Source of the DNA: Neisseriaceae bacterium
GTDB lineage: Bacteria > Pseudomonadota > Gammaproteobacteria > Burkholderiales > Neisseriaceae
DNA: 40,516 nucleotides
Direction of reading: 5' to 3'
Assembly (NCBI GenBank): GCA_017645365.1
Contig: JAGCOT010000021.1
Coordinates: 1 to 40,516, forward strand
This document shows positions 14,711 to 18,090 of the stretch, one piece after another. Below the pieces are notes generated by a model. That model saw only the letters and a program-made list of their open reading frames with translations, did not search any database and was not told the origin of the DNA. How positions within the stretch are numbered: the first letter of the stretch is position 1; the number at the start of each line of letters is the position of its first letter. A program made the translations under genes and the position numbers.

Positions 14711-15550
14711 ATGAATATCATCAACGCCATTATTCATTGTGTTGAAAATCCTGTGATTGAATTAGTTGCAGAATACAAAAACCGCAATCGTGCTAATCAG
14801 GCAGGTGATGCTTTGGAAGAATACATTAAAGACTTGTTTTCAGGCAGCCTGAATTTATCAGAACAAGAAAGAATAAAACGCCATAATGAAGTGTTTTCTT
14901 ATTTGGGCAATAACAATAATCCTCCTGATATGATGTTGAAATATGGTGATGCAATAGAAGTCAAGAAAATTGAAAGTCCTACTTCTGCTTTGGCTTTGAA
15001 CAGTAGTTATCCAAAAGCCAAATTGTTTTCCGATAGCAATATGATTTCAACGGCTTGCAAAAATGCTGAACCAAACTGGACAGAAAAAGATTTGATTTAT
15101 GTTGTTGGTGTTGTGAATAAACAAAATCAGTTAAAACAACTGTGTATGGTTTATGGTGAAGATTATTGTGCCGCCGAAGAATGTTATACACGAGTCAAAA
15201 ATACCATTAAACAAGGGGTTGAAAATATTGTTGGTGTGGAATTTTCTGAAACCAATGAATTGGGGCGTGTCAATCGCATTGACCCACTTGGCATTACTTA
15301 TTTGCGTGTGCGTGGTATGTGGGGAATTGATAATCCGTGGTCAGTTTTTCACTATATTTATCAAAAGAATACAAGTCAGGATTTCAATTTTATGTGTTTG
15401 ATTAACGAAGAAAAATGGCAAAGTTTGCACAATAAGCAAGATTTATTGAATGTACAAAACCAAGCGTTAATTATTCTTGATGTCCAAATCAAAAATCCCA
15501 ATAATCCAGCACAATTAAAAAATGCTAAATTGATTGCTTTTAGTAGATAA
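14711..15550 (+). CDS. Type II restriction endonuclease, NgoPII family (predicted GGCC)
   Basis: 279 aa. Colinear with my recollection of R.NgoPII ([55 protein letters not shown]). Ends 4 nt before the cognate methylase gene. Confidence 0.8.
14839..14853. repeat. Palindromic DUS 15-mer inside the restriction endonuclease gene
   Basis: TTCAGGCAGCCTGAA encodes FSGSLN, at the position where R.NgoPII has FSGSFN (from memory). Confidence 0.85.
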
Positions 15551-15554
15551 GTTT

Positions 15555-16544
15555 ATGAAAATTATTAGTTTATTTAGTGGCTGTGGCGGTTTGGATTTAG
15601 GATTTGAGCGTGCAGGATTTCAGGTTGCTGTTGCCAATGAATATGATAAAACCATTTGCCCAACTTTTAAAGCCAATCACCCTAAAACTCTATTGATTGA
15701 GGGTGATATTCGTCAAATACAGGCATCTGATTTTCCTGATAATATTGACGGCATTATTGGTGGTCCTCCGTGTCAATCTTGGTCGGAAGCAGGTTCTCTT
15801 CGTGGGATTGAGGATGTGCGTGGGCAATTATTTTTTGATTACATTCGTATTTTAAAAGCCAAACAACCCAAGTTTTTTTTAGCAGAAAATGTAAGCGGAA
15901 TGCTGGCCAATCGCCATAATCAGGCAGTACAAAATATTTTAAAAATGTTTGATGAGTGTGGTTATGATGTTGATTTAACGATGGTGAATGCCAAAGATTA
16001 TGGTGTTGCACAAGAGCGTAAGCGTGTGTTTTACATTGGTTTTCGCAAAGATTTAGATATAAAATTTCAGTTTCCAGTCGGTTCAACCATTGATGATAAA
16101 GATAAAATTACATTAAAAGATATTTTGTGGGATTTGAAAGATAACGCTGTTCCTGCTTTGACAAATAATAAAGCCAATCCACAAGCGGTTAATCACCACG
16201 AGTATTTTATCGGCAGTTTCTCACCGATTTTTATGAGCCGAAATCGTGTTAAATCTTGGAATGAACAAAGTTTTACAGTTCAAGCATCTGGACGACAATG
16301 CCAACTTCACCCTAACGCCCCTAAAATGGAAAAAATGGGAAAAGATATTTATCGCTTTGTTCAGGGAAAAGAAAATTTATATCGCCGAATGACTGTTCGT
16401 GAAGTGGCAAGAATTCAGGGTTTTCCTGATGATTTCACATTTATTTACAACAATGTTAATGATGCTTATAAAATGATTGGCAATGCAGTTCCTGTGAATT
16501 TGGCATATGAAATTGCACAAGGAATTAAACAGTATTTAATTTGA
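15555..16544 (+). CDS. C-5 cytosine DNA methyltransferase, M.NgoPII/M.HaeIII-like (predicted GGCC)
   Basis: Motif [14 protein letters not shown], motif [14 protein letters not shown], and [10 protein letters not shown]. The target-recognition region ([18 protein letters not shown]...[16 protein letters not shown]) closely resembles M.HaeIII/M.NgoPII. Start ATG at 15555; the ORF track extends it to 15534. Confidence 0.88.
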
Positions 16545-16571
16545 ATTTTCAGGCAGCCTGAAAGCAAAAAA

Positions 16572-16590
16572 AACCGCCATTTCGGCGGTT
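16572..16590. terminator. Bidirectional hairpin terminator between the methylase gene and tal
   Basis: AACCGCCATTTCGGCGGTT is flanked by an A tract and a T tract. It is preceded by the DUS 15-mer at 16548-16562. Confidence 0.75.
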
Positions 16591-16604
16591 TTTTGTTAGG
16601 ACGC

Positions 16605-17843
16605 TTATTCAAACGCTTCAATAAACGCCAAGATTTCATCAAAGGCTGCCTGAAATTGTTGTAAGCCTTTGATTTGTAAGTCGTTTGCTATTGCAGATAA
16701 ATCGGCGTATTGAGCCACTTCTGTTAAAATTTGTTGTGCGTTATCTGTATTCATCAACTCTGCCTTGCCGTGTTCCAAAAAGGCGTTCATTGCCTTTTCA
16801 GGGAGCGTATTGACGGTGTTTTTGCCAATTAAGTTGTCGATATACAGCGTGTCTGAATAAGCGGGGTTTTTTGTGGCGGTTGATGCCCATAATAGCGTAA
16901 ATAATGGGCAATCTTCGCGATATTGTGGGCGGATTTTAACAGGTTCGTCATCACAATGGCAGTTATCGCACTCATCGCAATCGCCACAACACTCGTGTTT
17001 GTCATCGTGGTGATGGTGATGAGCACCGCAACACTCGTGTTTTTCATCGTGGTGATGATGATGATGAGAACCACAGCCACAGCCGCCACAGCAGGTGTCT
17101 TCTTCTTCGTCTTCGTGATTATCGGCGTTTTGCCACGCTTCAATCAATGCGGCAGGCGGGGTGTGGTCTTTCATTTCGTCATACAAGGCTTGTGCCATAG
17201 CCACAGCGGTTTTGCCTTGTAAGTGGGCGGGCAATTTGTCGTCAATTGCCGTGTCTATGCGAGATAAAAACACGCTGGCAACAATGCGTCCGTTAGCAGG
17301 CGGATTGCCTTTGTAAAAGGCTTGTTCAATTTTTTTCACGGTTTCACCGTCAAAAATCAGCGTGGTGTTGATATTGCATTCGCACGATAGGCGTTCTACT
17401 GCCTTAATGCCAGCCGCTGTGGCGGGGATTTTAATCATCACATTCGGGCGGTTGATTTTTTGCAGCAAACGCCGTGCTTCAAATACTGTGCCGTCTGTAT
17501 CGTTTGCCAAAGCGGGATTCACTTCAATGCTCACAAAACCTGCATTGCCGTTACTGTATTGATATTCCGTTAAAAATATATCGCAGGCAGCCTGAACATC
17601 GGCACACGCCATTGTTTCGTAAATTTCTTGGGCGGTTTTGCCGTCGGCTTTGAGCGTTCGCATTTGTTGTTGATACAGTTCATCATTTTTAATGGCGGAC
17701 AGAAAAATCGCAGGGTTTGTGGTAACCCCCGATACGCCTTGACGAATTTTTTCGTTTAACTCGCCTTTGATAATCATTGAACGAGATAGGCTGTCTAACC
17801 AAATTTGCTGCCCTAATAGGCGTACTTGTTGAATGTTGTTCAT
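16605..17843 (-). CDS. tal: Transaldolase carrying a Cys/His/acidic-rich insertion
   Basis: 412 aa. GQQIWLDSLSR, TTNPAIF, the catalytic-Lys block MIKIPAT, and LLWASTATKNPAYSD. An extra roughly 70 residues (241-313) are absent from the neisserial Tal I recall. Confidence 0.85.
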   Translation of the reverse strand: MNNIQQVRLLGQQIWLDSLSRSMIIKGELNEKIRQGVSGVTTNPAIFLSAIKNDELYQQQMRTLKADGKTAQEIYETMACADVQAACDIFLTEYQYSNGNAGFVSIEVNPALANDTDGTVFEARRLLQKINRPNVMIKIPATAAGIKAVERLSCECNINTTLIFDGETVKKIEQAFYKGNPPANGRIVASVFLSRIDTAIDDKLPAHLQGKTAVAMAQALYDEMKDHTPPAALIEAWQNADNHEDEEEDTCCGGCGCGSHHHHHHDEKHECCGAHHHHHDDKHECCGDCDECDNCHCDDEPVKIRPQYREDCPLFTLLWASTATKNPAYSDTLYIDNLIGKNTVNTLPEKAMNAFLEHGKAELMNTDNAQQILTEVAQYADLSAIANDLQIKGLQQFQAAFDEILAFIEAFE

Positions 17844-18090
17844 GTTTTTTTTTCCTTGTTTATTTTTCAGGTTGCCTTATTTTAAGCAAACGACCATTAT
17901 ATAAATGGTCTCATCAATAGACAATAGTTTCATAACTTCCTCTCAAACTGGCATCTATATTTTTAAAAACTTTACATCTAACAGTTTTTCATGGCTTTAT
18001 TTCAGGCAGGCTGAAAATTTTGACGAAACTTGCAAAGATAACTTGCCAAACTGCTATTTAATCAAGTATCTTCTTCGGTTTGCCAAGTGA

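Follow-up and report, generated by a model that had tools for sequence, protein, structure and literature searches.

Why would an enzyme of central metabolism carry dozens of cysteines, histidines and acidic residues in a single loop? The question is raised by a 40,516-nucleotide stretch of DNA (the window), contig JAGCOT010000021.1 of the assembly GCA_017645365.1, from a Neisseriaceae bacterium. Its transaldolase gene, tal, encodes a protein (Tal) with an insertion of 73 residues that other neisserial transaldolases lack. We find that the insertion is shared by a single lineage, in which its DNA changes quickly while its composition is kept, and we consider it moderately probable that it works as a metal-binding loop. 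The features on which the argument rests are the following.

16605 to 17843, minus strand: tal, an open frame of 412 amino acids, the sole transaldolase gene of the genome, encoding a long Tal of the Neisseria/actinobacterial type.
16905 to 17123, minus strand: the insertion as it was flagged, residues 241 to 313 (73 residues), between the helix at 231-240 and the strand at 315-320.
16944 to 17117, minus strand: the Cys/His/acidic core of 58 residues, residues 243 to 300, delimited by counting composition.
17026 to 17064, minus strand: repeat unit 1, the first in the protein, HHHHHDEKHECCG, of direct-repeat family D1 (read from the codon listing).
16984 to 17022, minus strand: repeat unit 2, HHHHHDDKHECCG, a direct repeat that is followed by the conserved CCGxCDE end motif (also from the codon listing).

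To interpret the insertion we need to know what it is inserted into. Tal is a member of the transaldolase family: profile, residues and barrel fold, every defining feature that we checked, are all present. The Pfam profile TAL_FSA (PF00923) matches residues 14-406 (6.1e-69, 233 bits against a cut-off of 27). The NCBIfam model TIGR00876, of the tal_mycobact type, is passed only narrowly (236.7 bits, cut-off 233.75), because the insert splits the profile match; for NF002881 the score of 336.9 stays under the cut-off of 367. The closest matches in the PDB are the Neisseria gonorrhoeae transaldolase structures 3clm and 7bbw (E about 1e-84). An initial sequence-only reading of the window had described an otherwise ordinary transaldolase with intact catalytic blocks, and this description is borne out. 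The MIKIPAT block, which contains Lys138, and the block LLWASTATKNPAY are intact and lie in invariant alignment columns. An alignment of 52 Neisseriaceae Tal, the one in the window included, shows no variation at D17, E107, K138, T161, R195 and S321, and conservation of 90% or more at N159 and K325. We take the six invariant residues to correspond to D17, E96, K132, T156, R181 and S226 of Escherichia coli TalB.

The window belongs to a genome (G000) of 1.78 Mb in 144 contigs with 40.5% GC, where it is contig C39. The assembly is 99.99% complete and 0% contaminated, and it contains a single TAL_FSA gene. As the sole copy in a complete genome, tal must work, and its product probably catalyzes the conversion of sedoheptulose 7-phosphate and glyceraldehyde 3-phosphate to erythrose 4-phosphate and fructose 6-phosphate. 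One public metagenome-assembled genome (MAG) annotates this Tal as 'hypothetical protein', a label that can be corrected to transaldolase.

What, then, has been inserted? The alignment to N. gonorrhoeae Tal (3clm/7bbw) stops at residue 236 of our protein and restarts at residue 316, which sets the bounds of the insert. Two further alignments (A1 and A2) have a gap at this site in all Tal outside the insert-bearing clade. The core contains 15 His and 12 Cys, exactly the numbers first counted, together with 10 Asp, 9 Glu, 6 Gly and 2 Lys, and it has four CC pairs. Cys and His make up 27 of its 58 residues and Asp and Glu another 19, whereas the genome background is 1.0% for Cys and 2.5% for His. 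Elsewhere in Tal, 354 residues contain 5 Cys and 3 His. When the 1.78-Mb genome was scanned in all six frames, the core ranked first for Cys plus His (18 of 30 residues), and no other real protein comes close.

The core is partly built of repeats. The sequence-only reading had reported a direct repeat of about 43 bp near 16986 and 17029. It was close to the mark: 16984-17022 and 17026-17064 are copies of 39 nt, 92% identical, with a period of 42 nt. Tandem Repeats Finder detects nothing beyond a (CAT)5 run and a short run of GAAGAC, and TGT is mixed with TGC and CAT with CAC. Hence, the insert is not a simple triplet repeat. Readings of the insert as an intein, as a mobile element or as the product of an alternative frame were rejected, and the overlapping open reading frames at 16829-17143 (minus strand) and 16923-17222 (plus strand) are by-products of the repeat composition.

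Part of the native sequence, GSHHHHHH (17053-17073, minus strand; residues 258-264), has the same letters as common recombinant His-tag linkers. Because of this identity, the insert retrieves nothing but tagged constructs from the PDB. It also means that native Tal should bind the resin used in immobilized metal affinity chromatography, so that we expect it can be purified without a tag.

How widespread is the insert? A Cys/His/acidic insert at the same site occurs in 15 protein clusters (389-441 residues, or partial), which are 62-98% identical to our protein. All named clusters among them are labelled uncultured 'Neisseriaceae bacterium' MAGs. Other neisserial Tal have 341-352 residues, are at most 57% identical and have nothing at this position. 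Scanning 176 species genomes of Neisseriaceae, we found the insert in G000 and G146-G151, seven of the eight species genomes in the GTDB genus to which the window belongs. The remaining species, G152, has a Tal of 350 residues that is 55% identical and carries no insert, and the insert was not found in any of the 168 genomes from 24 other Neisseriaceae genera. The initial statement that neisserial Tal has nothing at this site is thus confirmed by both the alignment and the scan. Insert-bearing contigs come from the NCBI assembly GCA_017508845.1 and from the XIEF21 and TONG22 assemblies of ENA, which are presumably ruminant digestive-tract metagenome sets. Neisseriaceae have been reported in the literature on rumen epithelial microbiota (PMC8005654).

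A maximum-likelihood tree calculated with the insert masked groups all 13 insert-bearing proteins in a single clade, supported at 100/100. Hence, a single gain suffices to explain the distribution. The stem that leads to the clade is long, at 1.1 substitutions per site, and judging by this branch the core of Tal changed much around the time at which the insert was gained. Compared to other Neisseriaceae Tal, all insert-bearing Tal also share a deletion of eight residues (residues ~179-186, ~17285-17310 on the minus strand), in a loop that reads G--------NPPANGR in alignment A1. The sequence-only reading had considered that the segment might be common to its Tal subfamily and already characterized. 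The first half holds at the level of a genus-level clade; for the second, we found no characterizing paper in the literature.

The diverged copies also settle whether the insert could be an assembly artefact, a vector-derived His-tag contaminant or a frameshifted pseudogene. The tag-linker letters and the PDB matches to nothing but tags would fit such an origin. However, the frame is open, and diverged versions (62-98% identity) are found at the same site in seven species genomes and in contigs of several independent NCBI and ENA assemblies. The insert also gathers synonymous changes like real coding DNA. Independent diverged copies rule out all three variants of this explanation, to which we assign a negligible probability. 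Judged from these comparisons, the insert is real and evolutionarily maintained in an uncultured group of ruminant-gut Neisseriaceae.

All versions of the insert share one layout: an acidic run at the start, H-x-CCG-x-CDE at the end, and tandem units in between. A CCGGCGCG-type block follows the acidic run in most versions, but not in the subclade of G150 and G148, and the CCGxCD(E) motif is common to all clade members. The number of units varies from 1 to 5 among clade members, and from 2 to 5 in the seven species genomes. Examples are:

Insert of the window's genome, G000: two HHHHH(D/E)xKHECCG units.
Insert of G149: four HHHHH(D/E)xKHECCG units.
Inserts of protein clusters P0006 and P0011: one HHHHH(D/E)xKHECCG unit each.
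Insert of G150: five HHCCGECDDHE units.
Insert of G148: two HHCCGECDDHE-type units.

Such variation raises the possibility that the insert has no function at all. Replication slippage may have inflated a surface loop, and the resulting low-complexity expansion may persist simply because it is harmless. Tandem units in copy numbers from 1 to 5, a 39-nt repeat that is still 92% identical and a predicted disordered loop away from the catalytic face are all what one would expect from such a process. So is the rate of change: between the two closest genomes there are 15 changes in 59 insert codons compared to 11 in 351 core codons, about eight times more per codon.

A harmless expansion should not keep its composition, though. 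Between the G000-type and G150-type subclades the synonymous sites of the Tal core are saturated (dS, the number of synonymous substitutions per site, exceeds 2), yet both subclades keep roughly 40-50% Cys plus His in the insert. Cys codons switch freely between TGT and TGC, and His codons between CAT and CAC, while the residues are kept; this mixture of synonymous codons shows that conservation acts at the amino-acid level. Where it can be estimated, the ratio of nonsynonymous to synonymous substitution rates (dN/dS) is 0.07-0.24 for the insert, well under 1, and 0.06-0.19 for the Tal core, although the insert values are based on about 35-60 codons and a protein-guided alignment within repeats, which biases dN downward, and conversion between units is possible. 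Furthermore, no other protein of the genome shows a comparable expansion, and a dozen reactive thiols in the cytosol are unlikely to be neutral. Insert DNA turns over fast, yet its composition is kept. We therefore consider a functionless expansion unlikely.

Where does the insert lie in the protein? We ran AlphaFold2 on the 52-sequence alignment. The model has a mean predicted local distance difference test score (pLDDT) of 86.7 and a predicted template modelling score of 0.83, and the barrel blocks reach a pLDDT of 90-98, so the predicted (beta/alpha)8 barrel fold is confident. A Foldseek comparison of the model with 3clm gives E 4e-33 and a template modelling score of 0.91. The transaldolases of N. 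gonorrhoeae and other Neisseriaceae (3clm, 6zwf, 7bbw and others; 341-352 residues) thus share family and fold with Tal, at about 50% identity outside the insert. The catalytic Lys138, Asp17, Glu107, Thr161, Arg195 and the LLWAST block are kept; what differs are the roughly 70 extra residues, the eight-residue deletion, and Arg8 and Ser38 in place of Lys8 and Cys38.

Residues 248-300 have a pLDDT below 50 and no secondary structure in the model; they lie between the helix 231-240 and the strand 315-320. The insert is predicted to be a disordered alpha-to-beta loop outside the barrel core, in line with the surface loop suspected at the outset. In TIM barrels, alpha-to-beta loops sit where the strands begin, at their N-terminal ends, and the catalytic face is the opposite, C-terminal one. 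Hence, the insert should be located on the face opposite the active site. It ends about 14 residues before LLWAST-x-x-K, in which S321 and K325 vary hardly or not at all, and this next strand, with Ser321 and Lys325, probably binds phosphate.

The closeness of the loop to the putative phosphate strand suggests another function. Metal occupancy or disulfides in the loop could alter the geometry of the strand and make transaldolase activity, and pentose-phosphate flux with it, sensitive to metal or oxidative stress, and the loop could in this way replace a redox switch known from a relative. According to work from 2021, a nitrogen-oxygen-sulfur (NOS) bridge between Lys8 and Cys38 is reportedly the redox switch of N. 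gonorrhoeae Tal. With Arg8 and Ser38 the NOS bridge cannot form in the window's Tal, which has these residues at the very positions of the N. gonorrhoeae variants K8A (7bbx) and C38S (7bbw). Other members of the insert-bearing clade have Arg8 with either Ser or Cys at position 38. That a metal-binding segment can act on the domain that carries it has a precedent: nickel at the tail of SlyD reversibly inhibits the peptidyl-prolyl isomerase (PPIase) activity of this protein (PMC7055735).

However, the nearest relatives without the insert, P0016 and P0018, also have Arg8 and Ser38. The lack of the NOS switch extends to a wider group of Neisseriaceae and is not tied to the insert. In the model the loop lies at the N-terminal strand ends, on the non-catalytic face of the barrel, and a variable number of units suits the tuning of a capacity better than a precise switch. 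A regulatory switch is, in our view, distinctly unlikely.

The explanation that we favor, and hold to be moderately probable, is that the loop is a multi-site metal-binding sponge, grafted onto Tal by convergence and analogous to the SlyD tail, to domain B of HspA and to Hpn. Its composition, the four CC pairs, its acidity and the predicted disorder lead us to read it as an unstructured His/Cys-rich metal-binding appendage. A high content of His, Cys and Asp/Glu with CC motifs is observed directly, and the unstructured state is predicted by the model.

The history of such a sponge may have been as follows. The common ancestor of the ruminant-gut lineage would have gained a strongly acidic, disordered, low-complexity loop at the alpha-to-beta site before the LLWAST strand. 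The loop is built from tandem units of 11-14 residues, each with a His run, acidic residues and then His-x-Cys-Cys-Gly-x-Cys-Asp, and the array of units has grown and shrunk from species to species. Its vicinal Cys-Cys thiolates and His imidazoles would serve as ligands for soft or borderline metal ions (Zn2+, Ni2+, Co2+, Cu+). In this way an abundant housekeeping enzyme would also act as a buffer or store of metal in the cytosol, with the number of units setting its capacity.

Each of the systems to which we compare the loop shares some of its properties. The SlyD tail of E. coli binds up to seven Ni(II) and that of Helicobacter pylori binds nickel or zinc; the tail holds several Ni/Zn ions and is thought to be a reservoir (PMC7055735). 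Like the Tal loop, it is an unstructured segment rich in His, Cys, Asp and Glu, with GCCGG-type vicinal cysteines, on a housekeeping protein. Unlike the SlyD tail, the Tal insert is internal and not terminal. Moreover, SlyD is a PPIase and a partner of HypB in the maturation of hydrogenase, a pathway that we did not find in the insert-bearing genomes. The SlyD homologue of the window's own genome (C99:9900-10391, plus strand) ends in AHGHVHGAHGHHH, a short tail of His only, without the Cys-rich extension of E. coli SlyD.

In H. pylori, domain B of HspA (a GroES protein), Hpn and Hpn-2 are nickel storage or detoxification pools (PMC3856676). Like the SlyD tail, that of HspA binds both nickel and zinc (PMC3856676, PMC7055735), and a passage of PMC3856676, citing Rowinska-Zyrek 2011, gives the Cys-Cys motif as a metal anchoring site of Hpn and HspA. 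These are again His/Cys-rich additions with CC motifs in a host-associated bacterium, and HspA is a precedent for an essential housekeeping protein that bears such a module (PMC3856676). HspA and Hpn are specific to gastric Helicobacter and tied to the nickel demand of urease and hydrogenase, whereas the Tal loop occurs in a lineage without nickel enzymes. The Tal module also differs in being internal and built of tandem repeats, with a metabolic enzyme as its host.

Bacterial metallothioneins (SmtA/BmtA, MymT) are Cys-rich Zn/Cu(I) thiolate binders that contain some His and have similar CC/CxC/CxxC spacing. However, they are small free-standing proteins that fold around a metal cluster, and the Tal loop has far more His and acidic residues. 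A metallothionein profile was not matched: at E <= 0.01 the Pfam scan of Tal reports only TAL_FSA.

The same scan bears on the idea that the loop holds one defined cofactor, for example an iron-sulfur cluster on its CCxxCxxCxxCxC segment that would provide a new redox activity. The C-terminal end of the insert, CCGDCDECDNCHC, has a CxxCxxCxxC spacing that recalls ferredoxin-type motifs. But this spacing occurs only in the G000-type subclade, while other subclades keep CCGxCD units only, and the segment lies in an acidic stretch of repeats for which disorder is predicted. With no Pfam match besides TAL_FSA either, we regard a defined cofactor site as very improbable.

If the loop is a sponge, which metal does it hold? 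The sequence-only reading had likened it to Ni/Zn/Co/Cu-binding tails and proteins, among them HypB, UreE and Hpn. Urease alpha (PF00449) and [NiFe]-hydrogenase's large subunit (PF00374) were found in none of the seven insert-bearing genomes. A bona fide PF02492 GTPase (CobW/HypB/UreG/COG0523) was also found in none of the seven, where only weak matches of ~20-25 bits to another P-loop protein occur. These absences make nickel delivery of the classical kind unlikely. A role in buffering or detoxifying Zn or Cu would be more probable, and Zn or Cu(I) buffering is our preferred guess.

The lack of COG0523 suggests a more specific variant. COG0523 is present in 153 of the 176 Neisseriaceae genomes and in 23 of 25 genera, but in none of the seven insert-bearing genomes; G152, the genus member without the insert, has a COG0523 gene with a GCxCC motif (L027:1381-2400). 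The loop could therefore be a metallochaperone or metal-sensing module that replaces part of the lost COG0523 role. It would store and hand out Zn (or Cu) and couple pentose-phosphate flux, and with it the supply of reduced nicotinamide adenine dinucleotide phosphate (NADPH), to metal or oxidative stress through the adjoining, putatively phosphate-binding strand. Since the loss of COG0523 and the insert coincide in one phylogenetic event, the association is only a lead. A link between COG0523 and zinc is not established in Neisseria, and a review of the Zur regulon lists no COG0523 gene for N. meningitidis (PMC6103462). We consider such a replacement a long shot.

Several results weigh against the metal sponge. 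With the 73-residue insert as query, phmmer found no match among 1.84 billion representative proteins, as the filters for composition and bias remove the insert, and nothing but recombinant His-tags among PDB sequences; a word-seeded search with residues 240-300 gave no match beyond the insert-bearing Tal clade. An uncorrected BLAST comparison does pair the insert with the tail of E. coli SlyD over 31 residues at 52% identity (with a SlyD sequence entered by hand). Since composition-corrected searches yield no relatives, the likeness to SlyD, Hpn and HspA is convergence in kind and not homology. Of the likeness first proposed, composition and vicinal CC motifs (SlyD tail, Hpn, HspA) remain, and the nickel analogies to HypB, UreE and Hpn are weakened, as there are neither nickel enzymes nor GTPase chaperones in the insert-bearing genomes.

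Other points on this side come from the genome and from the methods. CopZ, two P-type ATPases with heavy-metal-associated (HMA) domains and a cation diffusion facilitator (CDF) exporter are present in all eight genomes of the genus, insert-bearing or not, so nothing in this set points to one metal. The genomic context is uninformative, with tal alone between obg and a restriction-modification (R-M) cassette, and a conserved operator of a metal regulator (Zur, NikR or Fur type) was not found upstream of tal. AlphaFold models do not represent metals, and the downward bias of dN in the insert belongs here as well.

If the loop does bind metal, it would be a clean bacterial case in which an enzyme of central metabolism has been recruited to buffer metal in the cytosol; we found no published transaldolase with a His-rich metal-binding segment in the literature. 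The module would be internal, with its size set by the number of repeats, in a lineage that has neither nickel enzymes nor the COG0523 chaperone. The idea behind HspA, SlyD and Hpn would then reach beyond nickel-dependent pathogens, and would add to the view of how commensals handle Zn and Cu in the metal-supplemented guts of livestock. The natural series from 1 to 5 units offers a ready dose-response for relating capacity to fitness.

The remaining observations concern the genome and the surroundings of tal. The six-frame scan of G000 found no genome-wide habit of Cys/His insertions. Besides Tal, only three real proteins in it are His-rich: a ZnuA-type binding protein of ~300 residues with a HEHAHAHGHHHHHH His loop (C65, minus strand), a small lipoprotein of ~118 residues with the His-rich repeats HQHEHHTHANHSHENHSHENH ... 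HSHEHGDEHHCQHDD (C72, minus strand), and a PriA-like zinc-finger protein (C24).

The R-M pair (14711-16544, plus strand) consists of a 279-residue endonuclease and a 336-residue C5 cytosine methyltransferase, and lies between tal and an acyltransferase (fabD-like) gene. In the close relative GCA_017508845.1 (L022), tal directly adjoins the Acyl_transf_1 gene. Hence, the R-M cassette is a strain-specific insertion. Three short elements flank tal.

17896 to 17924, minus strand: a promoter-like TTGTCT-17-TATAAT upstream of tal (consensus scan, 10 of 12 positions).
17892 to 17910, minus strand: a perfect 7+5+7 palindrome, GACCATTTATATAATGGTC, overlapping the predicted -10 element.
16568 to 16594, minus strand: a hairpin resembling an intrinsic terminator after tal, shared with the convergent methyltransferase gene.

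The palindrome GACCATTTATATAATGGTC was not found upstream of tal in other species, and we dropped it as an operator since it is not kept in relatives. The upstream regions of tal in relatives are unrelated, save for a TTTCAGGCAGCCTGAAA element, which resembles a DNA uptake sequence (DUS), and the AACAAGGAAAAAA ribosome-binding region. The terminator-like hairpin, by contrast with the palindrome, recurs: the same hairpin lies 3' of tal in the relatives L003-L006.

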